Below, piece after piece: positions 14,349 through 34,359 of a stretch of DNA of 40,475 bases. The notes below the pieces were generated by a model, which did no database searches, was not told where the DNA came from, and was given only the letters and a program-made list of their open reading frames with translations. The position numbers were made by a program, and so were the translations under genes. Positions within the stretch are counted from its first letter, which is position 1. Every line of letters starts with the position of its first letter. The stretch is from a virus (Duplodnaviria > Heunggongvirae > Uroviricota > Caudoviricetes), in the IMG/VR virus record IMGVR_UViG_2875713109_000005. The stretch is one strand, 5' to 3'.

Positions 14349-14406
14349 CCCCGGACGAGTGGGAATCCATGGTAGGGATTTTTACCGAAATGGAAGAACA
14401 CTATTA

Positions 14407-14444: not shown

Positions 14445-14874
14445 GCATAGCTGACCTTGCCAGGCCTGCTTCGCCCTGTAGTGACGCGATCAACGGGCAG
14501 GAAACATTCCCCTTTCGTGCATGGCAGGCGCACACGAGTTCAGACAGCACGGTTTCCATGCGCGCCAAGTCGGCCATCTTCTCGCGCACGTCCTTGAGCT
14601 TGTGTTCGGCCAGGCTGCTGGCCTCCTCGCAGTGGGTGCCATCGTCGAGCCGCAACAGCTCGGCAATCTCGTCCAGACTGAACCCCAGCCGCTGTGCCGA
14701 TTTCACGAATTTCACCCGAACCACGTCCGCCTCCCCATAGCGGCGGATGCTGCCGTAAGGCTTGTCCGGTTCCCGCAACAGGCCCTTGCGCTGATAGAAG
14801 CGGATTGTCTCCACGTTGACCCCGGCCGCCTTGGCAAAAACGCCAATGGTCAGGTTTTCCAAATTATTTTCCAT
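14440..14874 (-). CDS. merR: Hg(II)-responsive transcriptional regulator MerR
   Basis: 144 codons from ATG 14874 ([33 protein letters not shown]...). The metal-binding Cys residues are present in [12 protein letters not shown]. The ORF-track N-terminal extension is spurious. Confidence 0.95.
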
Positions 14875-14879
14875 ATCGC

Positions 14880-14910
14880 TTGACTCCGTACATGAGTACG
14901 GAAGTAAGGT
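14880..14910 (+). promoter_or_regulatory. merOP: PmerT promoter with the MerR dyad operator
   Basis: -35 TTGACT (14880-14885), dyad TCCGTACATGAGTACGGA (14885-14902) and -10 TAAGGT (14905-14910), with the characteristic 19-bp spacer. Confidence 0.9.
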
Positions 14911-14945
14911 TACGCTATCCAATCCAAATTCAAAAGGGCCAACGT

Positions 14946-15035
14946 ATGTCTGAACCACAAAACGGGCGCGGTGCGCTCTTCGCCGGCGGGCTGGCCGCCA
15001 TTCTTGCATCGACCTGCTGCCTGGGGCCGCTAGTA
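14946..15035 (+). pseudogene. merT: merT 5' fragment truncated by Tn3-family insertion
   Basis: [30 protein letters not shown], after which the Tn3 IR starts at 15036. Confidence 0.9.
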
Positions 15036-15068
15036 GGGGTCTGACGCTCAGTGGAACGAAAACTCACG

Positions 15069-18000
15069 TTAAGCAACGTTTTCTGCCTCTGACGCCTCTT
15101 TTAATGGTCTCAGATGTCCTTTGGTCACCAGTTCTGCCAGCGTGAAGGAATAATGGCCGAGCATATTGATATGTCCGTGGCAAAGCGGGGAGAGGCGTGC
15201 GATATCTTCATCATTCAGTGTTTCACCCTGCGCCCGGAGATGATCCAGGGCTGCCTGCATATAAATAGTGTTCCATAACACGACGGCGTTAGTGACCAGC
15301 CCCAGTGTGCCCAGTTGATCTTCCTGACCGTCGGTATATCGTTTTCTTATCTCACCTTTTTGACCGTGACAGATGGCTCTGGCAACGGCATGGCGACTTT
15401 CTCCCCGATTAAGCTGGGTCAGAATGCGCCGGCGGTAATCTTCATCATCAATATAATTAAGCAGATACAGCGTTTTGTTGATGCGCCCCACTTCAATGAT
15501 TGCCTGAGTCAGTCCGGAAGGACGTTCACTTTTCAGCAATGAACGGACCAGCACTGAAACCTGTACTTTGCCCAGCTTCAGGGAGCCAGCGGTCCGGATC
15601 ATTTCGTCCCACTGAAGGACTATTTTTCGGGGATCTGATTGCCCTCTGGCAATATCATTCAGCACGCCATAGTCGGCATCATGGTCCATTCGCCAGAAAA
15701 CCGAAGCACCGGCATCAGCCAGGCGTGGAGAAAACTGGTATCCCAGCAGCCAGAAAAGGCCAAAGACAAGTTCGCTGGCACCTGCTGTATCGGTCATAAT
15801 TTCGGTTGGATTCAGCCCGGTCTCCTGTTCCAGAAGACCTTCCAGCACAAAGATAGAGTCCCTCAGCGTCCCCGGTATAACGATGCCATGAAAGCCGGAA
15901 TACTGATCGGACACAAAGTTGTACCAGGTGATCCCTCTGTTATTACCAAAGTATTTGCGGTTCGGTCCGGCATTGATTGTTCTGACTGGCGTAACAAAGC
16001 GCATTCCATCTGCAGATGCCACTTCTCCTCCACCCCATATCTGTGCCAGTGGCAGCGTTGCCTGAAAATCAACCAGTCTGGCATTAGCGCTGGTGATAGT
16101 TTCAGCCCGCAGATAGTTCGCTTTTGTCCAGTTCAGCCGGTGTCGGGTCAGTGCAGGAACATTTGATCTGATCAGTGGTTCCAGACCGATATTGCAGGCT
16201 TCAGCCATCAGCACGGCGCTGATGCTGACGGGCAGATCATCAACTCTGGCACTGGCTTCACTAGCATGGAAAAACTCATCAGCAAATCCGGTATGGGCGT
16301 TAATTTCGAGCAGCAACTCCGTTAAATCCACCGGAGGGAGTAGATCACTGATCATTTTGCTCAGTCGTTTCAGACTGTCCGGCTCATCAAGACTGGCGAG
16401 GGGAGAAATTGTCAACCGGGGCTTCGGGCCAGAAACATCGAGTTCGACAGCCTCATTTTCGCAAAGACGTGCAGCAACCTGTCTGTAACGACTATCAAGC
16501 TGATGACCCAGAGATTTTATTGCTTCCTGCGGGTCTGTCGGGTGCCCCAAAGAACGATAAACCTTAATCCGGTTTGCCTGCCAGTCAGCACCCTGTAGTA
16601 ATCTTGCACGAGGATCTCCCCACCGGTTACTGCCGGTAACGTAGACATCCCTCCGCCTCAGACTATCCTGCAGTTTACTGAGAAAGCAGAGCGTGTATCC
16701 CCTGCGGGTGATATGTTTTTCCTTGTTAATCACCAGCCGTTTCCATGACCGACTGATAATTTCCGTTGGTGCGTCGTCAAAAAACTGCCGCCGTGAGCTG
16801 AACTCCCGGCTGAGGTAGTCACAGGCATTCAGAGTGGTAACCCCGGCAGGTGCGGATGAAAATTTAACGGTATTCAGCAGATGGGGCAGGAAACGACGAA
16901 CGCGCCCGTACTGCTCCACCATTTCTTCATGAAAATTATCGTCTGAGGGCCGGGCAATTTCACGGACAAGCGTGATGATTTCAGCCAGCTTTTGCCTTGG
17001 GATGTAGCTGAACACCTCAGCACGAATCGATTCGTCCGGTGTTTCTTCTTTCAGCAGGTACGAACATGCGCTGGCGAGCGCCAATGCAGATTTATCCAGA
17101 TCCTTCAGCGAGCGGAGCCGTTTTTTCTGCCCAATCTTTCTGGCGTCACGGATGATAACGGCCAGCATGGCGTCCAGAACGTCCAATGCATCATCCAGCG
17201 CCAGCGTTTCCCATGCAAGGACAAAGGCAACCAGAACCGCCATCCTTTTCTGCGGTGACATCCTGGCAATATTGAACACCGAAGTCATACCAGCATAACG
17301 TGCGAGATTTTTCAGGCGCACAGCCGGGAGTGTACTCAGGTTTTCAGCATGCAGGCCAAAATCGTTCAGAGTTTTCCAGCGTTCAATTGCTTCATTAAAC
17401 GCCGGACCACTGATGGTCACAGGGCCCTTTTTCAGTGATTCCAGTAAAGACAGGCGGCTGCAATCAGTTGGCCCCAGCAGCATCTCCAGCTGTGAACGCT
17501 GTTCGGCTGACGGTATCAGTGCCAGTTTGTTCCACAGGCGCAACGTCGCCTTTTCCCTTACCTCTGAAATCAACCGGGTCAGCGTAGTGGCTCCGGGGAG
17601 AATAATACGATGTTGCATAAGCCACCCTGTCGCCAGATCGAAAAGCAGGCCAGGACGTTCGTTGCTTATCCAGCTCCGGGTATATAAAAGACGGGTAAGG
17701 CGAAATGTCCAGGGCCAGGCAAATTCACGATACTGATAGTGCTGACGTATCAGCGCTGCATGCTCACGGCGGGTATTTTCCCTCTGACCGTATTCTGCAA
17801 GAACGGTGATATCACGAATCCCGAGCTGTCTGGCGGTAAAATGCCGGACGCCGGAAGGAATATGATTCATATCGGTGAGGAAGGTGCCCAGAAAACGGAC
17901 ACATCCAATTTGCAGGGCAATGCCCAGACGGTTGTGATCACCTCTGCTTTTTCCGATAAATTCCTTGTCTGCTTCATCAAGGTGAAAATATCGTGCCAGC

Positions 18001-18074
18001 TGAAGCTCATCCGGTTCACCGGTGAATCTGCCATAGCTTTCAGTCTGCTCAGTGGTCAGAAAGTCAACGGGCAT
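15069..18074 (-). CDS. tnpA: Tn3 transposase
   Basis: 1001 codons from ATG 18074 (MPVDFLTTEQTESYGRF...). The ORF track extends 53 codons upstream through res, which is spurious. Confidence 0.95.
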   Translation of the reverse strand: MPVDFLTTEQTESYGRFTGEPDELQLARYFHLDEADKEFIGKSRGDHNRLGIALQIGCVRFLGTFLTDMNHIPSGVRHFTARQLGIRDITVLAEYGQRENTRREHAALIRQHYQYREFAWPWTFRLTRLLYTRSWISNERPGLLFDLATGWLMQHRIILPGATTLTRLISEVREKATLRLWNKLALIPSAEQRSQLEMLLGPTDCSRLSLLESLKKGPVTISGPAFNEAIERWKTLNDFGLHAENLSTLPAVRLKNLARYAGMTSVFNIARMSPQKRMAVLVAFVLAWETLALDDALDVLDAMLAVIIRDARKIGQKKRLRSLKDLDKSALALASACSYLLKEETPDESIRAEVFSYIPRQKLAEIITLVREIARPSDDNFHEEMVEQYGRVRRFLPHLLNTVKFSSAPAGVTTLNACDYLSREFSSRRQFFDDAPTEIISRSWKRLVINKEKHITRRGYTLCFLSKLQDSLRRRDVYVTGSNRWGDPRARLLQGADWQANRIKVYRSLGHPTDPQEAIKSLGHQLDSRYRQVAARLCENEAVELDVSGPKPRLTISPLASLDEPDSLKRLSKMISDLLPPVDLTELLLEINAHTGFADEFFHASEASARVDDLPVSISAVLMAEACNIGLEPLIRSNVPALTRHRLNWTKANYLRAETITSANARLVDFQATLPLAQIWGGGEVASADGMRFVTPVRTINAGPNRKYFGNNRGITWYNFVSDQYSGFHGIVIPGTLRDSIFVLEGLLEQETGLNPTEIMTDTAGASELVFGLFWLLGYQFSPRLADAGASVFWRMDHDADYGVLNDIARGQSDPRKIVLQWDEMIRTAGSLKLGKVQVSVLVRSLLKSERPSGLTQAIIEVGRINKTLYLLNYIDDEDYRRRILTQLNRGESRHAVARAICHGQKGEIRKRYTDGQEDQLGTLGLVTNAVVLWNTIYMQAALDHLRAQGETLNDEDIARLSPLCHGHINMLGHYSFTLAELVTKGHLRPLKEASEAENVA

Positions 18075-18795
<721 letters not shown>

Positions 18796-18907
18796 TACGC
18801 CTATTTTTATAGGTTAATGTCATGATAATAATGGTTTCTTAGACGTCAGGTGGCACTTTTCGGGGAAATGTGCGCGGAACCCCTATTTGTTTATTTTTCT
18901 AAATACA

Positions 18908-18936
18908 TTCAAATATGTATCCGCTCATGAGACAAT
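18908..18936 (+). promoter_or_regulatory. bla P3-type promoter
   Basis: -35 TTCAAA (18908-18913), a 17-bp spacer, and -10 GACAAT (18931-18936). Confidence 0.7.
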
Positions 18937-18965
18937 AACCCTGGTAAATGCTTCAATAATATTGA

Positions 18966-19838
<873 letters not shown>

Positions 19839-19985
19839 CTGTCAGACCAAGTTTACTCATATATACTTTAGATTGATTTAAAACTTCATTTTTAATTTAA
19901 AAGGATCTAGGTGAAGATCCTTTTTGATAATCTCATGACCAAAATCCCTTAACGTGAGTTTTCGTTCCACTGAGCGTCAGACCCC

Positions 19986-20602
19986 CTGAACAATGTGACG
20001 GACTCAGAAGCCTTCCCGGGTCTTATCCGGCAGACTCACAGAAAAATCAGGGCAGCATCGGCAGATGGCGCTTACGACACCCGGCTCTGTCACGATGAAC
20101 TGCGGCGTAAGAAAATCAGCGCCCTTATCCCACCCCGAAAAGGTGCGGGTTACTGGCCCGGTGAATATGCAGACCGTAACCGTGCAGTGGCTAATCAGCG
20201 AATGACCGGGAGTAATGCGCGGTGGAAATGGACAACAGATTACAACCGTCGCTCGATAGCGGAAACGGCGATGTACCGGGTGGGTTACTGGCCCGGTGAA
20301 TATGCAGACCGTAACCGTGCAGTGGCTAATCAGCGAATGACCGGGAGTAATGCGCGGTGGAAATGGACAACAGATTACAACCGTCGCTCGATAGCGGAAA
20401 CGGCGATGTACCGGGTAAAACAGCTGTTCGGAGGTTCACTGACACTGCGTGACTACGATGGTCAGGTTGCAGAGGCTATGGCCCTGGTACGAGCGCTGAA
20501 CAAAATGACGAAAGCAGGTATGCCTGAAAGCGTGCGTATTGCCTGAAAACACAACCCGCTACGGGGGAGACTTACCCGAAATCTGATTTATTCAACAAAG
20601 CC
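19986..20602 (+). mobile_element. IS903 3' fragment with a 135-bp internal tandem duplication
   Basis: It starts mid-transposase (..LNNVTDSEAFPGL..) directly at the Tn3 IR. 20147-20281 is repeated at 20282-20416. The terminal IR GATTTATTCAACAAAGCC ends at 20602. Confidence 0.85.
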
Positions 20603-23175
20603 ACGGGAGACTCGCAGTTTGGACACTTTATGTTAATTGAAGACATAGGCATCAAAGACAAATAGGTCCAATACTCGCCATTCTTAATTAATCGTGTATT
20701 GCATGTACCACAGTGGGTATACACGGTAAAGTGTGTACACTCATTGCACCGATACCAACGCTTTTGATTATTTGAACTCATTGATTTCGTTACATCAACT
20801 ACTTTTTCAGACCCACAAGAAACACAAAAATTCACCGCATGAGTATCATCCGATGCTCCTCGAAAAGATGTATTGTCTTCAATGCCGTACTGTAGAAACA
20901 TCCCTAGCATACGTTGGATTTCATCAAGATAGCGTTGCGACTTCATTGGGTTTGCACATACTGCACCATAGTTTGTAGCTTGGCGTTGATGGCGTGCAGG
21001 TTCCCAATCAAACATGGATAGTTCGCCCAAATAACTGTCTTTCGCCCATTCCTGTGGAGAGACGACTTTCTCAACCGCATCTAACACGGGGTGAAGAACA
21101 AACACACTGTTCTCTTGGCATTCGCTATAATCTTTGCCGTTGTAAAGTTCATGGATAACCCCACCGATCCCACCTCTTTGCTTGAGATAGGCAGCAGAAT
21201 AGTACTTTGCATCGACGACTAACCGCTTTGAAATCTGGTTACCACTTTTGGTAATCGCTTCTACATCCAAAACAAAATCAGGGCGCTTACCATTTGCTAA
21301 GAACGGTTCGTATTGCAGAGTGATAGCTCTTGAAACACTTGGGTTGAAAAACTGAATGCTGATTTGTTCTTCATTGCCTTGAATATTCGCAATCAATTTT
21401 CGTTTCCAGTTGTCCTCTGGCTGATAGCGGAATGCCTGAGTCAGCACTTTGATGATTTGCAGCAAACACCAGCGTTCATAAAGTAGTGGCATGTTGACTA
21501 ACCCAATCGCTTCGATCTTCTCCAGCGAAAGCAAAATGTCCTCATCGGCCAAGCCAATCTGCTCTTTTAACTTTTTAAAACCCGAGTGAACCGCTTGATA
21601 GGCAGGGTTTTGCACAAAAGTCATAGAGTTAGGAAAGGTGCTTTTACTTTTGACTTTGCATTGACGCCATTCTTTTTCTATTTGCTGGAAAGGTTTCAGT
21701 TTTGGCTCAAGCGCTTTGTGTACGATTCCCACCTTTTCATGTTCAGTTGCGAAATAACCCAAGCGCTTATTGATGGTAGCACGTTCTTTTTCCTGTTCAG
21801 CGAGTTCATCTGTTGTCAGCTTCGCTTGCCAATCATTTTTACTTAGAGCAATGCCTTTATCACGCAATTTAGTGAAATTTTCTTGCTCTCTTTGAATAGA
21901 ACGAGACTCTGGTAATACGCAAATTCGTGAGATGTATTCTGGATACAAGACCACCGCTTTTCCCCTTCTTAACGGTAAAGGGATCTTCGCTTCTATCTCA
22001 TAGTCGCTATAAGCTTTAAACAAGCTGGCGTAATGATCTCTAGAATTAAAAATGGTATATCCATCTGGCTCAAACTGTTGCCAGTCATCATTTTGCGATA
22101 GTTTAATTTTAGCCCACCACTCATTCTCAGAGCCTGTTGCTTTTTCCAATCTTAGGTAACCTTTTTCAGAGTAACTTCGAGACAGATTAACGTTGATTTT
22201 CGCTAACTGTTCCGATAACTCGGCATTGATTACTTCTGTATCAAAGCGCTTTTTAAGTCGTTCTAAGTCTTTAACTACTAGGTCACGGTTGATAATACGA
22301 TAGTCTTTTAAACTGTCTAAACGCTCATTGAGCTTTTCAATAGCCCCAGAAAAACGACTCTTTTTGCTCTCAGCCACCTTAACCAATTGCTTTACAATGC
22401 TCAGCGTGCTCGAAACCACATACAGCACATACTGGTTTTCTGGCACGTTGTAACTCGGCTCAGATGCGCGGCTCGTTAAATGCTTACGCGAACCTTTGGT
22501 ACAAATCTCCATAAATGTACGTGGAACAGGACGTACTTCTTTTGCTGGCTTTAACGCTTGAATTTCTTTCAGTTCAACTTTGGGCTTTTTGAGGATGGTT
22601 TGTGCATTGCTAAGAATTGATGCGACTAATGACAGCGCTTCTTGGCCGATGGCTGCAACCTGTGAATTTTTAGCGTCGCCCGTGATATGACTATTCTCAT
22701 CGAGGATCAGCTCCCACAGGTCCGCTTTAAAATCTGACAGGTAACGTGAAAGATCCGATTTGGTCTGTTCGGAGATATCAATATCAAGCTTTAGTGTCGA
22801 GTTACCAATAACAAACGTGATCTGACCAGCCGTTCGCCTCGCTTCACTGCGCCACACCCGTTGTTTTGCGTCCCAATGAGCAGGCTCAACCCACCACACA
22901 GCATTAGATGCGGGATCGGTTATCGACTCTAACTGCTTTCTATCACCATTAGGCATGACAATGTAAGGCGGAGACTGATCACCCTGCTTAGTTTTTATCG
23001 CAAGTTGAGCAAAACGTAGCTCATCGACCTTAGGGTAGATGGTGGTGTGTGCGGAAAATGCATTGTTCCCCGTCTGCTCAAGCTTTAGCGAGTACTCCGA
23101 CTCGCTAACACTGACTAAGGTTTGCTTATCGTGCCATTTGGTCTCGATAAACTTGATAACGAATGGAGCTTCCAT
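20572..23175 (-). CDS. large McrC/DUF2357-like PD-(D/E)xK nuclease-family protein with C-terminal double zinc ribbon; 3' end clipped by IS903
   Basis: 867-aa ORF. LLYERWCLLQI is followed by RPDFVLD(633)...VVD(655)AK(657)YY. Four CxxC pairs are present (C784/787, C810/813, C822/825, C851/854). From residue 859 onward the codons and the stop are IS903 IR sequence. The ATG lies 2 nt after the stop of the upstream AAA+ gene. Confidence 0.8.
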   Translation of the reverse strand: MEAPFVIKFIETKWHDKQTLVSVSESEYSLKLEQTGNNAFSAHTTIYPKVDELRFAQLAIKTKQGDQSPPYIVMPNGDRKQLESITDPASNAVWWVEPAHWDAKQRVWRSEARRTAGQITFVIGNSTLKLDIDISEQTKSDLSRYLSDFKADLWELILDENSHITGDAKNSQVAAIGQEALSLVASILSNAQTILKKPKVELKEIQALKPAKEVRPVPRTFMEICTKGSRKHLTSRASEPSYNVPENQYVLYVVSSTLSIVKQLVKVAESKKSRFSGAIEKLNERLDSLKDYRIINRDLVVKDLERLKKRFDTEVINAELSEQLAKINVNLSRSYSEKGYLRLEKATGSENEWWAKIKLSQNDDWQQFEPDGYTIFNSRDHYASLFKAYSDYEIEAKIPLPLRRGKAVVLYPEYISRICVLPESRSIQREQENFTKLRDKGIALSKNDWQAKLTTDELAEQEKERATINKRLGYFATEHEKVGIVHKALEPKLKPFQQIEKEWRQCKVKSKSTFPNSMTFVQNPAYQAVHSGFKKLKEQIGLADEDILLSLEKIEAIGLVNMPLLYERWCLLQIIKVLTQAFRYQPEDNWKRKLIANIQGNEEQISIQFFNPSVSRAITLQYEPFLANGKRPDFVLDVEAITKSGNQISKRLVVDAKYYSAAYLKQRGGIGGVIHELYNGKDYSECQENSVFVLHPVLDAVEKVVSPQEWAKDSYLGELSMFDWEPARHQRQATNYGAVCANPMKSQRYLDEIQRMLGMFLQYGIEDNTSFRGASDDTHAVNFCVSCGSEKVVDVTKSMSSNNQKRWYRCNECTHFTVYTHCGTCNTRLIKNGEYWTYLSLMPMSSINIKCPNCESPVALLNKSDFG

Positions 23176-23177
23176 GA

Positions 23178-25352
23178 TTACGCCCAGTAGTTCACAACGC
23201 CATCATTCGATTCAGCCGTTTTAACCAAACGCTCTACCGATTTGGTGCAAGAAAACTCCGCCGTTATCTCTGCTTGATTATCCAACAGCGACTCAAGGCG
23301 AGGCAAGAATACACGGCTAACAAGCTCAGCTTTACTGTAATCGCCTACTTGCTTATCACCATCAAATGTGAATTTTGGTAGCACCTTATGAACGATAAAG
23401 TTGTTGATGGCCAGAGACTTATTGTCGTTTACATCGCTAAACAAACTTACGTAGTTAAGCCCCTGTCGAATGGTACGCATACCAAACTCCACGCCAAGCG
23501 GATCAAAGACATCTCGGTTTAAGGTCGTAAACAACTCGCAGAATTCATTCGTACGTTCAAATTTCGGATAAGGGGTACGCTCACCAAGCTCTTCAATATC
23601 AAACACTAGCGGTAAAGTAACGTCGTCTAGCCCGTAAGAGTCAATCTCATCAAAAATCGCATCCCAGTCGGTCAGCAAAGGACTCTTAAACTTCATCACA
23701 TGCGCGCGGTCAAGAATTTTTGGTGAGAGGTAATGGGTTGTTTCGTCGATGTTGATAGCACCAATAATTCTTACGTTCGCTGGAATCGTGATTGACGAAG
23801 GCGTGCCGAGAACACCTGCCAACATGCGTCTGATATCACCGTGGTATTTAATCAGTGAGTCTTTATCGCTAAAGCCAAACGCGCGCTTCATTTCAGCGTT
23901 AATTTCTTCATCTTGCATGAGCGCAACGAAGTCCACGATGCCATTTTTGCTGAACTTTTCTTGCGCGTTAGAAATGACAGAAACAACCCCTTTTAGCTCG
24001 GCAAGAACGTGTGCAGCTTCATCATCCGAGTAAAGTTGAATGGTCGGTTGCTCGTTACGCTCCTCTAGCTTAGAAAGAAAGTCGGCAAAGTAATATTCCA
24101 CTCGGGCAAGGTTCATTTCGTCTAAACAGATGAAGTATGGGATATCTGGGTTTTGCTTAGCCTCGATCAATGCCTCAAGAAATGGTGTCACCAAATATTT
24201 CTTCTCTAGGGGATTGTAATAACCCAGCAAATCTTCTGAACTAGTCCAGTTAGGCTTGACCGGAATGATCTTCGATACCCCACCAATAGCCTTGGCAAAC
24301 GACTGAACCAGGTTTGTTTTGCCTGAGCCTGAGTCCCCCGCCAGAATGATGAGATCATGGGTGCGAATAAGCGTTAGGAAGTTCTCGATAATATGGCGCG
24401 GGTACAAGATATCTCGTTCTTTTAGGTGCGCTTGAATGTATGAAACGGCATCACTGTAGTTAGAATCAAAAGCTTGCGAAAAAGAGATATGCTCGTCACG
24501 ATCCTTATTAGACAAGGTGCTTCCAACAAAAAGGTCAAAATCGTCATCATCCAAAAACTCAAAGCTTTTTAGGAATCCAGCCTTACTTTCGACATAAGCT
24601 TTTAAGCGTTCAATTTTTTTAGACATTGTTTCTTCTGCCTTCTTTTGCAATGCGATTTTGTGTTGCCATTCAGAGTGTTCAACTTCCAGCTTTTGGGCTT
24701 TCGCAATTGCCTGAGAGAGAACGTTATTTTTTTGATTTAGGTCATCTTGGACATGTTGAAGCTGATCTTTATATGACGATATCTGAGCCTTCAATGAGGA
24801 TTCTTCGCGCTCAAATTCTGCGTTAAGTGCAGTCACTTCGCTGTCAATTCTTGATTGAACGTTCTGTAAATGCTGCTTGTAAACAGCTTCATCAAGGAAG
24901 ATGTTTTCATCACCTTTGATGATGTCATTCGCCGTATATTCAGGAAGTTTGATAAGTCGACGGACTGAACTTACTACCACATTGCATTCGAACGGGTTTT
25001 CATGTTTTTCGCGTTCAGATTGAGGCGCTAAAGCAAGCTCGCATGAGACAAAACTCCCATCTTCCAAGCCAAATAACTCTTCGACACTTTTGAAGGAAAC
25101 AAAAACACCTTTGTCCATCGTCAAACGAACATTAATGGGATATTCAGTATCCAGTCCCGTTTGGAGGGATTTAATCTCTAAAAGACGGGTTGGGAGCTTT
25201 CTGCTATCGGAATCTGGGCCATTTAGAATCTTGCCCCAAACTGCCAGTTTTCCATTCGTAATCCCCCAACTCTCACAAAGGCATTGATAAAGCTCTTCAT
25301 CAGAGAACCCTTTAACCTCTTCAAGATTGTAGATAACTTGTTCTAAGGCCAT
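23178..25352 (-). CDS. McrB-like (AAA_5 branch) AAA+ NTPase with N-terminal unknown domain and coiled coil
   Basis: 724 aa. Walker A GDSGSGKT (aa 339-346, nt 24315-24338), Walker B FICLDEMNLARVEYYFADFL (aa 407-426), IIGAINIDETTHYLSPKILDRAHV (aa 529-552), and a heptad-rich segment at aa ~155-257. Confidence 0.8.
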   Translation of the reverse strand: MALEQVIYNLEEVKGFSDEELYQCLCESWGITNGKLAVWGKILNGPDSDSRKLPTRLLEIKSLQTGLDTEYPINVRLTMDKGVFVSFKSVEELFGLEDGSFVSCELALAPQSEREKHENPFECNVVVSSVRRLIKLPEYTANDIIKGDENIFLDEAVYKQHLQNVQSRIDSEVTALNAEFEREESSLKAQISSYKDQLQHVQDDLNQKNNVLSQAIAKAQKLEVEHSEWQHKIALQKKAEETMSKKIERLKAYVESKAGFLKSFEFLDDDDFDLFVGSTLSNKDRDEHISFSQAFDSNYSDAVSYIQAHLKERDILYPRHIIENFLTLIRTHDLIILAGDSGSGKTNLVQSFAKAIGGVSKIIPVKPNWTSSEDLLGYYNPLEKKYLVTPFLEALIEAKQNPDIPYFICLDEMNLARVEYYFADFLSKLEERNEQPTIQLYSDDEAAHVLAELKGVVSVISNAQEKFSKNGIVDFVALMQDEEINAEMKRAFGFSDKDSLIKYHGDIRRMLAGVLGTPSSITIPANVRIIGAINIDETTHYLSPKILDRAHVMKFKSPLLTDWDAIFDEIDSYGLDDVTLPLVFDIEELGERTPYPKFERTNEFCELFTTLNRDVFDPLGVEFGMRTIRQGLNYVSLFSDVNDNKSLAINNFIVHKVLPKFTFDGDKQVGDYSKAELVSRVFLPRLESLLDNQAEITAEFSCTKSVERLVKTAESNDGVVNYWA

Positions 25353-25599
25353 GATTTCTATTCAAAAAATAAATAAAGGGATTACCTAAGTGTTGCAAAC
25401 TCAACACATCTACATCTAGAGAAAAACAGGTTTAGCTTTGCTTCTTATCTAGCATTTTTTAGCGAGATAATCGCCAACGAGCATTTCAATAAATTCTTTA
25501 AGCTCCTGATATTAAACACCATAAGTCTAATATGGCAACAGTTTCTATAATCGCGTTTCGCGAATCCGTGTGACCTGCCCCCAGGATTAGATACAACCG

Positions 25600-26433
25600 T
25601 CAGTTAGTAAGGTCGGTTTGTTTACCTTCACATTTTCCATTTCGCCACCGTGCTGCAAACTCTGATGGCGTCTGATAATTCAGTGCTGAATGTGGACGAC
25701 ACTCGTTATAATCCTGCCGCCAGTCATTAATGATTTTCCTTGCGTGAACGATATCGCTGAACCAGTGCTCATTCAGGCATTCATCGCGAAATCGTCCGTT
25801 AAAGCTCTCAATAAATCCGTTCTGCGTTGGCTTGCCCGGCTGGATTAAGCGCAACTCAACACCATGCTCAAAGGCCCATTGATCCAGTGCACGGCAAGTG
25901 AACTCCGGCCCCTGGTCAGTTCTTATCGTCGCCGGATAGCCTCGAAACAGTGCAATGCTGTCCAGAATACGCGAGACCTGAACGCCTGAAATCCCAAAGG
26001 CAACAGTGACCGTCAGGCATTCCTTTGTGAAATCATCGACGCAGGTAAGACACTTGATCCTGCGACCGGTGGAAAGTGCGTCCATGACGAAATCCATCGA
26101 CCAGGTCAGATTGGGCGCCGCCGGACGGAGCAGCGGCAGACGTTCTGTTGCCAGCCCTTTACGACGTCTTCTGCGTTTTACGCCCAGGCCACTGAGGTGA
26201 TAAAGCCGGTACACGCGCTTATGATTAACATGAAGCCCTTCACGGCGCAGCAATTGCCAAATACGACGGTAGCCAAAACGCCTGCGCTCCAGTGCCAGCT
26301 CAGTGATGCGCCCTGATAAATGCGCATCAGCAGCCGGACGGTGAGCCTCATAGCGGCAGGTCGACAGGGACAAACCTGTAAGCCTGCAGGCACGACGTTG
26401 CGACAGACCGGTCGCATCACACATCAGCATCAC
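25600..26433 (-). CDS. IS3-family transposase OrfB (DDE/rve domain)
   Basis: Motifs include ...WSMDFV...TDQGPEF...[17 protein letters not shown].... The frame stays open upstream of its first ATG, in the -1 frame relative to orfA. Confidence 0.85.
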
Positions 26434-26456
26434 GGCTTCCCGCTTCTGGTCTGTCG

Positions 26457-26720
26457 TCAGTACTTTCGCCCAAGAGCCACCTGAAGCGCCTCTTTATCCA
26501 GCATGGCTTCGGCAAGCAGCTTCTTGAGTCTGGCGTTCTCTTCCTCAAGCGACTTCAGGCGCTTAACTTCAGGCACCTCCATACCGCCATACTTCTTACG
26601 CCAGGTGTAAAACGTGGCATCGGAAATGGCATGCTTGCGGCAGAGTTCACGGGCGGGTACCCCAGCTTCGGCTTCGCGGAGAATACTGATGATCTGTTCG
26701 TCGGAAAAACGCTTCTTCAT
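26457..26720 (-). CDS. IS3-family transposase OrfA (HTH)
   Basis: [49 protein letters not shown]... followed by a leucine-zipper-like tail, which is the IS407-group OrfA pattern. Confidence 0.85.
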
Positions 26721-26797
26721 GGGGATGTCCTCATGTGGCTTATGAAGACATTACTAACATCGGGGTGTACTAATCAACGGGGAGCAGGTCATAGTCT

Positions 26798-26873
26798 ATG
26801 GGCACACCACGTTTTACCCCTGAATTTAAGGAAGAAGCTGTCCGCCAAATCACCGAGCGGGGCTATTCCATCT
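26798..26873 (+). pseudogene. 5' remnant of a second IS3-family orfA, cut by IS903
   Basis: MGTPRFTPEFKEEAVRQITERGYSI, after which the IS903 IR begins at 26874. Confidence 0.5.
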
Positions 26874-28260
26874 GGCTTTGTTGAATAAATCAGATTTCGG
26901 GTAAGTCTCCCCCGTAGCGGGTTGTGTTTTCAGGCAATACGCACGCTTTCAGGCATACCTGCTTTCGTCATTTTGTTCAGCGCTCGTACCAGGGCCATAG
27001 CCTCCGCAACCTGACCATCGTTACCCGGTACATCGCCGTTTCCGCTATCGAGCGACGGTTGTAATCTGTTGTCCATTTCCACCGCGCATTACTCCCGGTC
27101 ATTCGCTGATTAGCCACTGCACGGTTACGGTCTGCATATTCACCGGGCCAGTAACCCGCACCTTTTCGGGGAGGGATAAGNGCGCTGATTTTCTTACGCC
27201 GCAGTTCATCGTGACAGAGCCGGGTGTCGTAAGCGCCGTCTGCCGATGCTGCCCTGATTTTTCTGTGAGTCTGCCGGATAAGACCCGGGAAGGCTTCTGA
27301 GTCCGTCACATTGTTCAGCGACAGGTCTGCACAGATGATTTCATGTGTGTTGCTGTCAACTGCCAGATGCAACTTTCGCCATATACGACGGCGTTCCTGG
27401 CCATGCTTTTTGACTTTCCACTCGCCTTCACCAAAGACCTTCAGCCCGGTGGAATCAATCACCAGATGCGCGATTTCACCCCGGGTGAACGTTTTGAAAC
27501 TGACGTTAACCGACTTTGCCCGCCTGCTGACACAGCTGTAATCCGGGCANGATGATTTCATGTGTGTTGCTGTCAACTGCCAGATGCAACTTTCGCCATA
27601 TACGACGGCGTTCCTGGCCATGCTTTTTGACTTTCCACTCGCCTTCACCAAAGACCTTCAGCCCGGTGGAATCAATCACCAGATGCGCGATTTCACCCCG
27701 GGTGAACGTTTTGAAACTGACGTTAACCGACTTTGCCCGCCTGCTGACACAGCTGTAATCCGGGCAGCGNANCGGAACNTTCATCAGNGNAAAAATGGAA
27801 TCAATAAAGCCCTGCGCAGCGCGCAGGGTCAGCCTGAATACGCGTTTAATGACCAGCACAGTCGTGATGGCAAGGTCAGAATAGCGCTGGGGCCTTCCCC
27901 GTGATGAAGGCGTTGCCGACTCATACCAGGCCTGAATCGCCCCATCATCCAGCCAGAAAGTGAGGGAGCCACGGTTGATGAGAGCTTTGTTGTAGGTGGA
28001 CCAGTTGGTGATTCTGAACTTTTGCTTTGCCACGGAATGGTCTGTGTTGTCGGGAGGATGCGTGATCTGATCCTTCAACTCAGCAAAAGTTCGATTTATT
28101 NNNNNNNNNNNNNNNNNNNNNCGGTTGATGAGAGCTTTGTTGTAGGTGGACCAGTTGGTGATTCTGAACTTTTGCTTTGCCACGGAATGGTCTGTGTTGT
28201 CGGGAGGATGCGTGATCTGATCCTTCAACTCAGCAAAAGTTCGATTTATTCAACAAAGCC
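26874..28260 (-). mobile_element. IS903 copy (both IRs present) with deletion, duplication and gap anomalies
   Basis: GGCTTTGTTGAATAAATC at 26874 and its inverse ending at 28260. Relative to the 4729 copy there is a 37-bp deletion after 27016. 27334-27549 is repeated at 27551-27766. A 21-N gap (28101-28121) is flanked by a 129-bp duplication. Several n bases are present. Corrected length is 1020+37 = 1057 bp, the canonical IS903 size. Confidence 0.85.
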
Positions 28261-28741
28261 CCAACCAATTAGCAATTCGCTTTTCGCATGTGCTAAAACA
28301 CCACTCTGGGTGTGCATCATTTAGCAATTCAGCCATTTTGCGTTTGGTCATCCCCCGCCCCTCATACCGTTGCCGAAGGACGCTAATCAATCCTGGATGC
28401 TCTGCCAGCACCTCACTTATGACCCGATCAATACATAACGCCTCTGCATCAGTACAATGCGCCAGCCAGCTCTTTTGCTTACCGTTAATCATATCCCGCA
28501 AAAAAGCCTCAAGTTCAGACTTGTTCAGACCTGCTTTTTTCATCCTCCGGAGCGCCTCGTTAATTGCCGTTTTTGTCAGCTTTTTAGAGGCCAACAACTG
28601 GTTGAACATATTCCCCGTCTTACCGCCGCCAATATACGACCAGCGCCCCCACATGCGCAGTTTTCCCTGAATCCAGACACTTTCCAGCGTGGTGAGACGA
28701 AGGTGTTCCCCGCTTTTGCCTGTATTTGTTGGGTAAATCAT
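28261..28741 (-). pseudogene. 5' part (160 codons) of the Q-type late antiterminator gene, interrupted by IS903
   Basis: ATG 28741 overlaps the upstream stop (ATGA). The product starts MIYPTNTGKSGEHLRLTTLESVWIQGKLRMWGRWSY.... It occupies the position between the nin-like genes and the lysis cassette. The frame continues at 4719-4658. The family assignment rests on position and the RMWGRW motif and is not verified. Confidence 0.6.
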
Positions 28742-29028
28742 AAATAACCTTCCTTTCTCCAGATTTCTTGCGTGCGAAAAACACCTTCTGCATGCATCAG
28801 GCGTAAATCTTCTTTGGTGTAATCGCTTGTTTTTACCCGCCCGTCGATTAAATCGTGGCATGAGCTACAGGCAATCGCCGCCTGCATATCGTGTGGTTTT
28901 GTCGCTGTTCCGCACGTTCCCGCCAGTCGGTAATGCGCCAGCACAGACGTTTCCGGATCGTGATTGCAGTAGCCAAGAATTCTGACGGTGCACATCCGCC
29001 CCCGCGCCGCTTTACGTAAATCCACCAT
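28738..29028 (-). CDS. YbcO-like (DUF1364) prophage protein
   Basis: 96 aa, MVDLRKAARGRMCTVRILGYCNHDPETSVLAHYRLAG.CGT.TKP.D..A..ACS.CHD. It closely parallels DLP12 YbcO as I recall it. Confidence 0.7.
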   Translation of the reverse strand: MVDLRKAARGRMCTVRILGYCNHDPETSVLAHYRLAGTCGTATKPHDMQAAIACSSCHDLIDGRVKTSDYTKEDLRLMHAEGVFRTQEIWRKEGYL

Positions 29029-29627
29029 TACGCAAACTCCAGCAGCTGCGCGGCCACATTTTCGACTTGTTCCGGAGAGGAAAATTTACGGAACAGAATC
29101 CAGTTCCACAGCACATTCAGAACAGATTTATAAACCTGCTGAAACTCGGTTTCGTCCATATTCGCAAAAGCGATAGATTTTGCCCGACGCCCGCGGCTAC
29201 CGTCCGGATAAAAATGTTCGGTGTAAAATCCAGCCTGAATGGTTACCCACTCGCGAAAAGCCTCAAACGACTTTAGCAATGCCGTATCCCGGGTTCTGCG
29301 TGTCGCAACTGTATTCAGATATTGCTCTGCGGCTTCGCTCAGAGCTGGCGTATGTTCCCGGCCTACTGATTCACATAGGTAATCAACGAATCCTGAAACC
29401 AGCTTTCGTTCGCGAGGCGTGATCGCCCCACCGACCGGAGTCCAGTAATCGAATCCCAGTTGCAGGAGTTTGAAAAAACGCTTGTGGAATGCGTAGTTAC
29501 GCACACGCTTAAAGTCTGCGTGTATCCACTCGCCTATTTTGATTTGATGCAAAAAATCGCAACTCTCCGGCGTCGCCGGGAGAAGTAGTCCAGAAGAGGT
29601 TTGTTTGACCAGTTGTATATGCGCCAT
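29028..29627 (-). CDS. DUF1367 (YdfU-like) prophage protein
   Basis: 199 aa. It occupies the nin-region position upstream of ybcO-like and Q, with overlapping start and stop. The family call is from memory of Qin YdfU. Confidence 0.55.
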   Translation of the reverse strand: MAHIQLVKQTSSGLLLPATPESCDFLHQIKIGEWIHADFKRVRNYAFHKRFFKLLQLGFDYWTPVGGAITPRERKLVSGFVDYLCESVGREHTPALSEAAEQYLNTVATRRTRDTALLKSFEAFREWVTIQAGFYTEHFYPDGSRGRRAKSIAFANMDETEFQQVYKSVLNVLWNWILFRKFSSPEQVENVAAQLLEFA

Positions 29628-30494
29628 TTCTCAATCTCTCGATGGCGCAGTGCAGCAGATGCCAGTTGTTCAGGCTGACGAATAAAGTATAAATAAACTG
29701 GCTATGGTGTAAAGCTCCACATAACATGAACAAACACTACATATCAAATAGCTGATACAAGGATAGAAATACAACACTTATTATTAAAAACGATTAGATA
29801 AATTACATTTTAATGTTATGAAAAAGTTCTTTTTTATCATAACATTTCAACAAAAGCATTACAGATGCACATCCCGTCATCATCAATTATTTAAGGTGGT
29901 TAAACATGGAAAATAACAACTATGCACATCTCGCTCCTTTTTTATCCGTAATCCTTTTCGCTGGCTGTTTTATATGGGCATTATTTTTATAAAGTAGCCG
30001 CATGATTAGTTTCTGGAATCATGTTTCCCACTCAAATCATTAACATTTGATAAGATATATCTAAAAGGATGCCTTTACATTATTTGATGCGTATATGATT
30101 TATTTATATGCACAGTAAAGGCATCCTGGAAATAATCAAGATTAATGATATATTGCTTATCTCATCCCCCACTGTCTTTCACCCGGAAAACATTTATCGT
30201 TAAAAATATATCATAAGTAATTAAATTGAAATTTCAGAACACAACTAATGCACACAATAAGATTCAGTAACAGTAATCTATGCGGACTATATCGAGATTT
30301 TTTAGTTAAACTTTAATAAGTTATTCCTAACACACAGAATGCACAAACTAAAAGTAAAACAAATAGTTATACGAAAAACAACCATATTGATTCTATCTTC
30401 TCCTCTAATCAACATATCAATTATGTGTTTCATAACAGCTTGACATAACCCTCAAAAAGGTGCATTTATAATGCATGTTTTATGGGAGGTGGTT

Positions 30495-30836
30495 ATGACA
30501 CACAAGAGAATTCCTAAAGACTGGGTAATCAAACGCTCAACTCCGTTCTTCACAAAAGAGAACGTACCTTCAGCGTTATTAACACATCATAATACAGCAG
30601 CAGGTGTTTTTGGACAGTTATGCGTGATGGAAGGTACTGTAACATATTATGGTTTTGCTGATGAGAATGCTACTGAACCGGAGATAAAAGTAGTCATTAA
30701 TGCTGGCGCTTTTGCAACAAGCCCACCACAATACTGGCACCGTGTTGAACTAAGCGATGATGCTCAGTTTAATATTAACTTTTGGGTAGCTCCAGACTTC
30801 TCAGGCGAAAAAGTCTATACCGCAAAAAAAGAATAG
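30495..30836 (+). CDS. YeaR/TehB-N-like DUF1971 protein (moron)
   Basis: GGAGG lies upstream of ATG 30495. RSTPFFTKENVPSALLTHHNT..GV.G.L.VM.G.V.Y.GFADE...EP......AG.FA..PP..WH.VE...D..FNI.F.VAP parallels E. coli YeaR. Confidence 0.6.
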   Translation: MTHKRIPKDWVIKRSTPFFTKENVPSALLTHHNTAAGVFGQLCVMEGTVTYYGFADENATEPEIKVVINAGAFATSPPQYWHRVELSDDAQFNINFWVAPDFSGEKVYTAKKE

Positions 30837-30918
30837 CCACGCTATAAATATCTTATTAACTAGTCCCGGCGTGGTTCTTTCCCCGCTGGGTCTTTTACTC
30901 AGATTAGTAGTCTACGAA

Positions 30919-31044
30919 TCAGAGCCTCCGTCTGCCAGTTCGGATTCGTACCTCGCAGAGGTCTTTCCTCGTTACCAGTGCCGTCACTATGACGGTTAAA
31001 CAGATGACGATCAGGGCGATTAACATCGCCTTTTGCTGCTTCAT
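30919..31044 (-). pseudogene. hok/gef-family type I toxin homolog with aberrant C-terminus
   Basis: AAGGAG lies 8 nt upstream of ATG 31044. MKQQKAMLIALIVICLTVIVTALVTRKDLCEVRIRTG is identical to the HokD/Gef-type N-terminus as I recall it. It then reads RRRL-stop where the family has QTEVAVF.., consistent with a 1-nt deletion (GGCAGACGGAGG vs GGCCAGACGGAGG) plus divergence. Confidence 0.6.
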
Positions 31045-31566
31045 AGCCTGCTTCTCCTTGACCTTTCGGTCCGTAAGAGGCTAATCTCTATGTGTCGCAT
31101 AGATATGGCCTCAGATTAATGTTAAACGTCTTGCAGGACGCGTAATGTTAACTGGGGCTTTTCTCTATCTACCTTTGGTGTTCATGCCCGAGGCAGATAG
31201 CCTCAAGCACCCACAGCAATTCTAACTATCCAATACATCACTGCCAACACTTTAAACTCTTACCCTTTAAAACAAGAACAAAATTCAACCAATCAGCATT
31301 GGGCGTATACTCATATCCTAGAGAAAACAACTCTTTCTGTACCATTTATATCCATATGATTTATAAGCATTTGCCACTTGCCATAGCCGCACAATGACAG
31401 TTTGCCATTTGATGTCAATAGATAAAAATGATCGTTTTCAATGAGTTACATACTTGCAAGGCGTTGCACATCAGGCCCGATTACGTCAGTATCAAAAGAT
31501 TACAGATGGTGCATTACTGCCACCTCGCCTTAATGTTCCAGAACTCTCCAACTTGAGGAATTTTCA

Positions 31567-32340
31567 ATGACATCCTTTCAATTATCTTTGATTTCTCGTG
31601 AAATTGACGGCGAAATAATACATTTACGTGCCAAAGATGGTTACATAAACGCCACATCAATGTGTAGAACTGCGGGCAAACTGCTCTCTGATTACACTAG
31701 ACTCAAAACTACTCAAGAGTTTTTTGACGAATTATCACGCGATATGGGAATTCCCATATCGGAGTTAATTCAATCATTTAAAGGTGGAAGACCTGAAAAC
31801 CAAGGGACATGGGTGCATCCTGACATCGCTATTAATCTAGCGCAGTGGCTATCGCCCAAATTTGCAGTCCAGGTTTCAAGATGGGTTCGTGAATGGATGT
31901 CAGGGGAAAGAACTACAGCAGAAATGCCTGTACATTTAAAACGGTACATGGTTAATCGTAGTAGAATTCCTCACACGCACTTTTCTATTCTTAATGAACT
32001 GACATTCAACTTGGTTGCACCTCTTGAACAAGCAGGGTACACACTCCCAGAAAAAATGGTTCCTGACATTTCACAAGGAAGAGTATTTTCACAATGGTTA
32101 AGAGATAATAGAAACGTAGAACCCAAAACATTCCCTACCTATGACCATGAATATCCCGATGGTCGCGTATACCCTGCAAGGCTGTACCCAAATGAATATT
32201 TAGCAGATTTCAAAGAACATTTTAACAATGTTTGGTTGCCGCAATATGCCCCGAAATACTTCGCTGACCGGGACAAAAAGGCTCTCGCCTTGATTGAAAA
32301 AATTATGCTACCTAACCTCGATGGCAATGAACAGTTCTAA
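31567..32340 (+). CDS. KilA-N domain-containing prophage protein
   Basis: 257 aa. The N-terminal ...GYINATSMCRTAGKLLSDYTRLKTTQEFFDELSRDMGIP...GGRPENQGTWVHPDIAINLAQWLSPKFAVQVSRWV matches the KilA-N DNA-binding domain pattern. Confidence 0.75.
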   Translation: MTSFQLSLISREIDGEIIHLRAKDGYINATSMCRTAGKLLSDYTRLKTTQEFFDELSRDMGIPISELIQSFKGGRPENQGTWVHPDIAINLAQWLSPKFAVQVSRWVREWMSGERTTAEMPVHLKRYMVNRSRIPHTHFSILNELTFNLVAPLEQAGYTLPEKMVPDISQGRVFSQWLRDNRNVEPKTFPTYDHEYPDGRVYPARLYPNEYLADFKEHFNNVWLPQYAPKYFADRDKKALALIEKIMLPNLDGNEQF

Positions 32341-32460
32341 ATGATTAGCCAGCCCCATAAGGGCTGGTTATTTAGTATTATCAACCCCAGCGGCAAATCG
32401 AATACACCACCAGCGCCACCGCCATCGCAATTCCTACCGTTGTGAATGCTTCAGGCCAGG

Positions 32461-32964
32461 TCATCGTAAAACATCCTCCACGCTTATAAGTCCGCTTCGC
32501 TCCAGGTAGTCCATCACTTTATCCGGCAATTTGCAGCCCGGTTTCGCTTTCTTCAGTTGACTAACCAATTGTTTAACCAGCATTGTCAATTCGCGAACTT
32601 GTTTCCCGGGCTCCCCTTTGCCCTGAAGCAGGGCAGCGCGGCAAGCGTTCCATCCCTCAGCATATGTTTCAGTTACACCATCGAGATGGCATGTAAGCAA
32701 ATCCATTTCTTCCGGCACTACGGGCGCTGGAAAAACGGCATAGGGTGGCGTCCATTTTGGCGCTTTATCTCCAGCCGAACGCTGATACCAGTCATCCGGT
32801 TTGTATTCATAAAAATCACCAACTGGCTCTGCTTCCAGCGATGCCAGAGCAATTTTGAATAATTCGCCCTCTACCCGTGCCATCCCTGAATTGGGGTGGC
32901 ATTTCTCAATCGCTATTTTTAATTTAGCTTCTTCGATTAATTGCTTTTTGGTTAATTCAGTCAT
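32461..32964 (-). CDS. hypothetical prophage protein
   Basis: 167-aa ORF in the early-region orientation. I recognise no family. Confidence 0.5.
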   Translation of the reverse strand: MTELTKKQLIEEAKLKIAIEKCHPNSGMARVEGELFKIALASLEAEPVGDFYEYKPDDWYQRSAGDKAPKWTPPYAVFPAPVVPEEMDLLTCHLDGVTETYAEGWNACRAALLQGKGEPGKQVRELTMLVKQLVSQLKKAKPGCKLPDKVMDYLERSGLISVEDVLR

Positions 32965-33126
32965 TTTTCATTACCGCCCTTTCGGGCCGCCTCCTAATAT
33001 TTTGAGGGTGCAGCCCCCCCCCTCCGGTTAAGGATTAAATTTTATTTACAGTGCTAAATTTAATTATTCAGATTTGGATTATGATTTCTCTTTCAGTTCA
33101 CGCAGTTCCCTGATTGTTAATTTGGC

Positions 33127-33564
33127 TCACAACAGCACATCCTGAAAATTACCCTGATAGAACGCCAGTACACGCTGCATGACTTCGCTCTTCCGGCACT
33201 CGCGACAGATTATATTCAGACGCCTGTCATAGCGGCGTATTTCTCCGTCTGGTAATGACCAGATAAGGTCCGGATCAACTACAGCAGGTTTCTTCACCTT
33301 TGCCCTCGATAGTTTTTTGCGGGCGTTTTGCCAGTCTTTACGCGCCTGTTCAGACGGGAATAACCCGTAACCAGAGTTGTATACATCGCCACTGGCAACC
33401 AGCTCACTGGCGAGAACACTCATCAGATATCTTGTCGCACCTGTCTTGGCTTCCAGTTGCCGTAACGTCTCGCGACCGCTCAGACGTACAAGTTCAACAA
33501 CCTGCCCTTTAATTTTTTCCCGCTCTTCTGGTGTAAATACTTTTGCCATAGGTGCCTCCGGCAA
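33127..33564 (-). CDS. hypothetical prophage protein
   Basis: 145-aa ORF starting immediately after the upstream stop. An alternative start is M6 at 33549. I recognise no family. Confidence 0.5.
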   Translation of the reverse strand: MPEAPMAKVFTPEEREKIKGQVVELVRLSGRETLRQLEAKTGATRYLMSVLASELVASGDVYNSGYGLFPSEQARKDWQNARKKLSRAKVKKPAVVDPDLIWSLPDGEIRRYDRRLNIICRECRKSEVMQRVLAFYQGNFQDVLL

Positions 33565-34359
33565 TCACTTTTCCGATGCAACATGGCGGGAAGAATCAGT
33601 AATCTGTCGTACAATATCCCTGTGCTTGTTCAACTCACGCAGCGCGGCGCAGACACACTCCCACTTCTGGACATGATTTTTCGCCCGACGCAGTTCGCGG
33701 TTTGCCATATGCAGTGATGGTAAAACCAGGTCATCCGCTCGCGTTTCAGTAAACGATGGCAGCGACTGCACAATGTCCGCCACAGTTTCTGTTTTAATAT
33801 CTTCCTGTGTTGCAGCCTCCTGTACTGGTAACGCAACACCTGCGGTCTGAGGAAAGGCCTTACCATCAGTTTCCGCTACCGATGCTGCTTTCGGCTCTGC
33901 TGGTAAATTATCGCCCGGTATGCAGTAACGAAATTTACCGCCCTGATTTACGCGAATCAGACGACCTTTGCTGATTGCCATTGCCAGCGTTGAAGCCACT
34001 TTGCGTGATGTGGTACCAAACAATGTAGCCAGCTCATCAGCCGTTTGTGGTCCGCGTTGTTCAATCGTCGCGGTTAAATCGCACTCTGAGATTTTCGCTA
34101 CTGTTGCTGTGGTGGTTTCTTCCAGCAGTTCTACCTGCGCTGGCTGTTCCTGCTGAACGTTGTTATCAGCCACACGCCAGGTGTACGCGCTTTTATCAAC
34201 ACAACCAGCCTTTTTCAGTTCCCATAGTTCGTTCAGCACTTCTTCACGACTGATATCAAGTCGAGCAGCAAGTTCTATGGATGTGGCTTTTCCCATTGCT
34301 TTCAGTGCGTCAAAAACAGTCTCCATTAAATTTTTCTCCCGGTAAAAATTACTTCGCAA
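33565..34359 (-). CDS. winged-helix prophage protein (DUF1627/YdaW-like)
   Basis: The likely start is M12 at 34326 ([41 protein letters not shown]), with a second wHTH-like repeat ([28 protein letters not shown]). It lies downstream of the DnaC-like remnant. Confidence 0.5.

Follow-up and report, generated by a model that had tools for sequence, protein, structure and literature searches.

Inverted IS903 sequences around a candidate defence module in a Rac prophage record of Escherichia coli: composite transposon, plasmid mosaic or assembly product

In Tn903 (IS903-aph(3')-Ia-IS903) an inverted pair of IS903 copies surrounds a passenger gene, the two arms are identical, their 5'-side inverted repeats (IRs) face inward, and the whole unit is enclosed by a target duplication of the 9 bp that IS903 makes (GTTCTCCGA in pRK2013). 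Transposons of the Tn9 type carry insertion sequence (IS) arms in direct orientation, and the IS-bounded mosaics of IncR and IncF plasmids combine fixed inner junctions and variable outer flanks with hybrid IS copies and lost target duplications. The subject here is an inverted pair of IS903 sequences around a two-gene module, the candidate defence system PDC-M26, in IMG/VR virus record IMGVR_UViG_2875713109_000005 (Caudoviricetes), a stretch of 40,475 nucleotides that is referred to as the window. The window is identical, including its ambiguous bases (Ns), to GenBank CP035331.1 (GCA_004116875.1), a sequence of 4.82 Mb deposited as a complete chromosome. The interval bracketed by the pair (19986-28260) is likely to be a piece of a recurrent plasmid mosaic and no transposon, a reading that is paired with a lone IS903 in the Rac prophage and with plasmid contigs threaded into the record.

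Compared with these systems, the interval shares with Tn903 the inverted pair around a passenger and the 9-bp duplications typical of IS903. It differs in that its arms are 95% identical and converge, one arm has a target duplication of its own, the left arm in the window lacks an outer end, and the pair as a whole is enclosed by no duplication. With the IncR and IncF mosaics it has in common all of the features named above and also a Tn3 that lacks its 5-bp duplication and the same IS903B at one backbone site; nothing essential differs, the passenger being a candidate defence pair and not a resistance gene. The structure is an ordinary plasmid IS mosaic, already present in dozens of public records with annotated genes.

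Geometry and junctions of the IS903 pair

Repeat finding in the window places reverse-complementary IS903 sequence at 19986-20602 on the plus strand and at 26874-28260 on the minus strand. Both stretches contain open reading frames (ORFs) of an IS5-family DDE transposase (DDE_Tnp_1; Pfam and NCBIfam matches), namely a C-terminal part at 19995-20546 (plus) in the left remnant and two frames at 26977-27651 and 27506-28228 (minus) in the right copy. Four copies of the 18-bp terminal repeat GGCTTTGTTGAATAAATC are present in the window, two that read rightward from 4729 and 26874 and two that read leftward, with 20602 and 28260 as their last bases. The two inner repeats, at 20585-20602 and 26874-26891, are both the IR adjoining the transposase stop codon, and both cargo-touching ends run on as ...CAGATTTCGGG, so that the 3' ends face inward and the transposase genes converge. 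The first-pass annotation had described this inverted arrangement, and the repeat positions and ORF strands bear it out; it had further equated the geometry with that of Tn903, and there it erred, since in Tn903 as carried on pRK2013 the inner ends run on as ...CGAACTTTTGC and the genes diverge. Assignment to IS903 follows from a length of 1057 bp in closed plasmids, the 18-bp IRs, the DDE_Tnp_1 transposase and the 9-bp duplications ACGGGAGAC and CCAACCAAT. As written in the window the copies do not measure 1057 bp: the extents first given to them located the IS903 sequence correctly, and the lengths of 617 and 1387 bp are assembly artefacts that stand for 482 and 1057 bp.

Only a two-gene operon, a 1221-bp IS3-family element and an 82-bp IS3-family stub lie between the two IS903 sequences, and ORF and profile matches agree with the earlier view that 20603-25570 holds no further genes. 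Windowed GC content, now computed, is 42.6% for the cargo against 52-54% for IS903, 49.6% for Tn3 and 53.6% for the IS3-family element, which upholds what had been judged by eye; the cargo is not AT-richer than Rac or sit DNA (43-44%). The description of the cargo as a two-gene module of distinct composition is supported.

The inner junctions are natural structure, present in independent closed plasmids. The closed plasmid pEco_M21170_137 (NZ_CP133921) matches window positions 18001-20281 and 20282-27021 at 100% identity in each case, and the database search that had been proposed for the two IS903-cargo junctions found them base-identical in at least 13 plasmid records (left) and at least 37 (right), with hosts that include E. 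coli, Klebsiella, Citrobacter, Salmonella and Raoultella. Mis-joining of collapsed repeats, the hazard foreseen for these junctions, did take place inside both IS903 copies and spared the inner junctions. The joins, duplications and Ns within both copies of the record could suggest that the whole bracket is an assembly artefact and its IS903-cargo junctions absent from the cell, but this is extremely improbable: the inner junctions and the junction of remnant and Tn3 recur base for base in independently closed plasmids of several genera, and every one of them lies within a single contig of the record, with the joins at least 148 bp away.

Upstream of the ATPase gene the right IS903 has cut an IS3-family element, and the severed stub of that element, with its orfA start (MGTPRFTPEFKEEAVRQITERGYS), remains at 26792-26873 (plus). 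While the inner junction of this IS903 is fixed, its outer neighbours number at least five (type I Zorya, tetR(B), IS1/BREX, vapBC and Rac), a combination that fits recombination between IS903 copies or rearrangements adjacent to them; the IS903 at the ATPase end can be regarded as a recombination portal.

Origin of the left IS903 and of the inverted arrangement

The history of the left copy is best followed in relatives in which it is intact. In IncR and IncY plasmids (NZ_CP124811, NZ_CP073944) the left IS903 is complete at 1057 bp and has ACGGGAGAC on both sides; NZ_MT136605 and NZ_CP059289 have the same gene order. One copy of this duplication survives in the window at 20603-20611, and the uninterrupted site, ...CGTCATACGGGAGACTCGCAG..., is found in the Klebsiella plasmids NZ_PP376100 and NZ_CP084853, together with the native nuclease gene (858 amino acids). 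With a 9-bp duplication of its own and an empty site elsewhere, the left IS903 must have inserted alone, the module being already in place; the comparison of occupied and empty sites shows a simple insertion into the last codon of the nuclease gene, duplicating ACGGGAGAC.

The remnant seen in the window has a more complex origin. NZ_CP124811 and NZ_CP073944 carry a third IS903 located 1103 bp further out, which is truncated by Tn3 at 482 bp in the former and by another Tn3-family element at 128 bp in the latter; 204 plasmids have this third copy, an IS903B, in full-length form at one and the same junction of the IncR backbone. In the window as in pEco_M21170_137, the single-nucleotide polymorphisms (SNPs) of the remnant agree with the third, Tn3-truncated copy at positions 9 and 12 and with the left copy at positions 81-351, a hybrid pattern that points to formation by recombination and deletion. 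A crossover between direct repeats, the left copy and the third, Tn3-truncated IS903 of the IncR backbone, would have deleted one IS903 plus 1103 bp and left the 482-bp remnant against Tn3; we infer this origin from the SNPs.

The Tn3 itself, with blaTEM-1, occupies 15036-19985 (minus), has 38-bp IRs at 15036-15073 and 19948-19985, and abuts the remnant. Its other side severs merT of a Tn21 mer end, of which the Tn21-type 38-bp IR, merR and the start of merT remain at 14350-15035. It lacks a 5-bp duplication in the window (TAGTA versus CTGAA), so its two sides derive from different contexts, which adds to the picture of serial recombination. Because Tn3 has removed the outer end of the left copy, the inverted pair cannot move the cargo, which the first-pass annotation had judged probable: the left arm has no outer IR, and Tn3 begins 482 bp from the inner end. 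Both outer terminal repeats are present in the relatives NZ_CP124811 and NZ_CP073944.

It had also been proposed that the bracket indicates how the module arrived, that is, that the pair is or was a Tn903-like composite transposon which delivered the module and was later disabled by Tn3. Two IS903 sequences do flank the cargo in inverted orientation, the GC content of the cargo is distinct, and some IncR plasmids have both copies at full length with all four terminal repeats, so that movement is possible in principle. The proposal is nonetheless very unlikely. The left copy has its own duplication and an empty site in the Klebsiella plasmids, the remnant is recombinant, and the left and right copies, where intact, show 49 differences in 1057 positions, unlike the identical arms of Tn903; their polarity is opposite to that of Tn903. 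Klebsiella plasmids carry the module with the right IS903 only, and a 94% identical variant of the module occurs without IS903. Around the pair no duplication is found in NZ_CP124811 and NZ_CP073944, where the outer 9 bp are ACGGGAGAC versus GCACGTACT or GGTACGGTC, or in NZ_CP084853, where the outer copy is complete and the flanks read GACTGAATG versus CCATAGAAC; as a positive control, Tn903 in pRK2013 gave GTTCTCCGA on both sides. Inversion between the inverted copies was considered as a cause of the absent duplications and rejected, as reverse complements of the four flanks in NZ_CP084853 gave no match. A plasmid that combines an intact Tn3-side IS903, the cargo and a matching duplication was also sought: NZ_CP084853 has the intact copy and no duplication, and NZ_CP059289 has the truncated form.

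What mimics a composite transposon is thus an inverted IS pair around a defence module whose piecemeal assembly is revealed by target duplications, empty sites and isoform SNPs. It follows that bracketing by IS should not by itself be counted as evidence of mobilisation unless these three have been checked.

Assembly of the record and the Rac prophage site

What is chiefly new concerns the record itself, whose IS903 and IS1 copies were produced by the assembly, as probably was the position of the plasmid segment in the chromosome. When the remnant is compared with pEco_M21170_137 it proves to contain an artefactual tandem duplication of 135 bp (20147-20281 = 20282-20416). The right copy reads, in order, IS903 positions 1-148, 186-713, an N, 498-1047, 21 Ns and 919-1057; positions 149-185 are lost (37 bp), positions 498-713 (216 bp) are repeated on either side of the single N at 27550, and a further 129 bp are repeated on either side of the 21 Ns at 28101-28121. 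With these duplications and Ns, the outer third of the right copy is linked to the inner part only through scaffold joins. Joins lie inside every IS903 and IS1 copy of the window, and unique prophage DNA bears a like scar, in which a 113-bp repeat stands on both sides of the 21 Ns at 2298-2318. At 14052-14349 the left end of an IS1 (149 bp) is fused to a right end (149 bp); closed plasmids have a full 768-bp IS1 at this position, two different IS1 copies having been merged in the window. Ns of the window stand at 2298-2318, 5073, 5445, 27181, 27550, within 27770-27790, and at 28101-28121.

The places at which contigs end are informative. They lie 148-149 bp into IS1 or IS903, or about 150 bp beyond the last isoform-specific SNP; in the remnant, for example, the pieces break off at IS903 positions 187 and 321, against distinguishing SNPs at 336 and 171. 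Such a pattern would be expected of contigs built from 150-nt reads whose overlaps were concatenated and not merged. The Ns at IS903 positions 717, 719, 726, 735 and 737 of the right copy are exactly the IS903B-type differences, which indicates that a second IS903 copy spanning this region was present in the reads; the contig on the left Rac flank breaks off at position 716, directly before them. Mixed IS903 and IS1 reads were rejected as the source of the Ns at 27770-27790, which fall on IS903B-type differences and on no others. The pieces IS1-sit-IS1, IS1-mer-Tn3-remnant and cargo-IS903, which adjoin one another in the window, have IS1 copies and 62 kb of backbone between them in the closest plasmid, where tetR(B), not Rac, lies beyond the right IS903. 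It would seem that the plasmid contigs were strung together across IS903 and IS1 repeats that had collapsed.

The two outer parts of the window, 1-4728 and 28261-40475, consist of Rac-like prophage DNA that matches E. coli PSS-07 at 99.96-100% identity. The block between them, 4729-28260, carries sitABCD, the Tn21 mer end, Tn3 with TEM-1 and the defence module, and is bounded by IS903 sequence in direct orientation. On its two sides, at 4720-4728 and 28261-28269, stand the copies of the 9-bp target duplication CCAACCAAT, which lies in the Rac DUF1133 (Q-like) gene and is single in the uninterrupted site of PSS-07. The IS903/Rac junction is also found in an independent Logan assembly (contig SRR8448315_52), in a contig that ends 29 bp into IS903. 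On the left flank, 4729-5444 (minus) corresponds to IS903 positions 1-716, in the same orientation as the right copy, and is followed by an N and then by IS1 from its position 297. This boundary is a scaffold join: it brings together two internal IS positions, which transposition cannot produce, and the IS903(716)-N-IS1(297) join is contiguous in none of 5,426 complete E. coli genomes. Twelve genomes seemed at first to have an IS903/IS1 junction and were rejected, because the pieces are spread over about 946 bp and their order is different in the one record that was inspected; the interpretation of 4729-5785 as a full IS903 copy was likewise rejected, since the sequence is IS1 from 5446.

The most plausible state of the strain is a lone IS903 in the Rac gene and, separately, a pEco_M21170_137-like plasmid whose contigs were threaded into the chromosome through shared repeats. 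The chromosomal IS903 would have inserted in the DUF1133 (Q-like) gene and duplicated CCAACCAAT, and the assembly would have threaded plasmid segment 5446-27021 into this copy. The alternative is that the record is correct, and that the 23.5-kb plasmid-derived block truly resides in the Rac prophage, brought there by its two outer IS903 ends or through recombination with an IS903 already resident. We consider this unlikely. In its favour, the duplication lies exactly at both outer IS903 ends, with the single-copy empty site in PSS-07, and the ends at 4729 and 28260 are the only pair in the window oriented to move the cargo. A lone IS903 would yield the same duplication, however, and wherever chromosomal DNA meets plasmid DNA the connection runs through a scaffold join within IS903 or IS1, also at the left boundary with its internal positions joined across an N. 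The Ns at 717-737 reveal a second IS903 copy across the supposed end of the left one, the sit-side IS1 has no IS903 next to it in the closest plasmids, and no IS903 at this Rac site was seen among the matches listed from the 5,426 complete E. coli genomes.

The more specific form of the alternative, in which the scaffold order is correct and the outer IS903 ends at 4729 and 28260 moved the block into the Q-like gene, leaving CCAACCAAT, is improbable. The block would then resemble a transposon of the Tn9 type, with direct IS903 at both ends and a 9-bp duplication outside, whereas in fact its left arm amounts to a fragment of 716 bp that an N connects to the interior of IS1 and its linkage depends on scaffold joins. 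Were it true, the transfer of a defence system from a plasmid into a prophage by an IS903-bounded unit would thereby be documented.

Several considerations weigh against the favoured interpretation, that of a plasmid mosaic with a lone Rac IS903 and threaded contigs. The deposition of CP035331.1 as a finished, complete chromosome speaks for the record as it stands, and the suspicion of a scaffold artefact in the Rac linkage draws on contig-end arithmetic and the positions of Ns. The probable order of events was rebuilt from a handful of related plasmids and no dated phylogeny, and the plasmids with an intact left copy all descend from one event. The absence of a duplication is no proof against past transposition, because later recombination between IS903 copies can erase it. 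A literature search on CP035331 and SRR8448315 returned nothing. On balance the 'complete chromosome' CP035331.1 probably holds plasmid contigs threaded through IS903 and IS1, in which case surveys of defence, resistance and virulence genes on chromosomes would be misled by it.

Other features of this region deserve mention. A 300-amino-acid ORF at 4785-5687, in which IS1 InsA domains are fused to the IS903 DDE domain, results from the IS903-N-IS1 scaffold join and is no real gene. The IS903 copy that begins at 4729 has five clustered differences at 5201-5222 (positions 473-494; C>A, T>A, C>A, G>T and C>A) that occur in no other IS903 examined. They could be consensus errors or true variation in a chromosomal copy; an origin by bleed-through from the Tn3 junction was rejected, as the pattern does not fit. 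At 28250-28741 the IS903 interrupts the 3' end of the Rac DUF1133/antiterminator-Q-like gene, giving a 163-amino-acid product with an IS-encoded tail, and this exact protein is present in only two contigs of the public collections, CP035331.1 and the Logan contig of SRR8448315. A chromosomal sitA-sitB' fragment lies next to trkG in the Rac region, as in PSS-07 (locus L003, 502-1730), and its first 300 nt are 98% identical to plasmid-type sitB (window 1-318 versus 6957-7256), a second sitB repeat that could mislead scaffolding.

The PDC-M26 pair and its neighbours

The closest familiar counterpart of the cargo is McrBC, in which, as here, the gene for an AAA_5 ATPase precedes that for a PD-(D/E)XK nuclease. 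PDC-M26A (23178-25352, minus) encodes a 724-amino-acid AAA_5 (McrB-type) ATPase, and PDC-M26B (20572-23175, minus) an 867-amino-acid protein with a PD-(D/E)XK (PDDEXK_7) nuclease domain, both recognised by PADLOC and Pfam profiles. The genes are adjacent and the profile matches essentially full length, at 1107 bits over 1-724 of 724 for PDC-M26A and 1428 bits over 1-856 of 857 for PDC-M26B. The final 10 codons and the stop of the nuclease gene lie inside the IS903 terminal repeat, hence the 867 amino acids in place of the native 858.

The label 'McrBC-like' in the first-pass annotation is apt for the pairing of ATPase and nuclease domains and goes too far beyond it. The ATPase matches AAA_5 at E 8.7e-8, while McrB chains of the PDB are matched weakly (E 1.3e-3) and over residues 312-464 only. 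For the nuclease, Pfam gives only PDDEXK_7 (residues 565-660), and profile and PDB searches returned no McrC-family match and no structure. Both cargo proteins are, moreover, much larger than McrB and McrC. A literature search found no paper that names PDC-M26. The pair is a candidate defence system, and its Zorya or BREX neighbours in relatives support such a role through context. It is carried on IncR, IncF, IncHI2 and IncY plasmids beside one or the other.

Upstream of the ATPase gene lies the 1221-bp IS3-family element (25571-26791, minus; orfA 26457-26720, orfB 25600-26433), with ends TGACCTGCCCCC / TGACCTGCTCCCC and no target duplication around it. Beside this element the native sequence upstream of the ATPase gene has lost 173 bp that NZ_PP376100 retains (locus L002, 9969-10141); the loss may change the promoter region of the PDC-M26 operon.

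Among the Klebsiella plasmids the module directly adjoins a type I Zorya operon (NZ_PP376100, 11586-16283; NZ_CP084853, 11662-14859), and in IncR plasmids a BREX operon lies near it (for example NZ_CP073944, 15153-17616). The module together with Zorya or BREX resembles the defence islands borne on plasmids, with IS903 at the seam. The 94% variant, in other E. coli plasmids (loci L006 and L007, 6748-12061), is placed between a Tn3-family transposase fragment and an IS21-family element. Such a Tn3-family fragment lies downstream of the nuclease gene in both variants (L006/L007; NZ_CP124811), and the IR of the window's Tn3 also matches records that carry the 94% variant. In some GenBank records (CP082454.1, CP097408.1, OW849263.1) the 867- or 858-amino-acid PD-(D/E)XK protein is labelled 'EstP' or 'pyrethroid hydrolase', a label that clashes with the nuclease domain and is probably a propagated misannotation.

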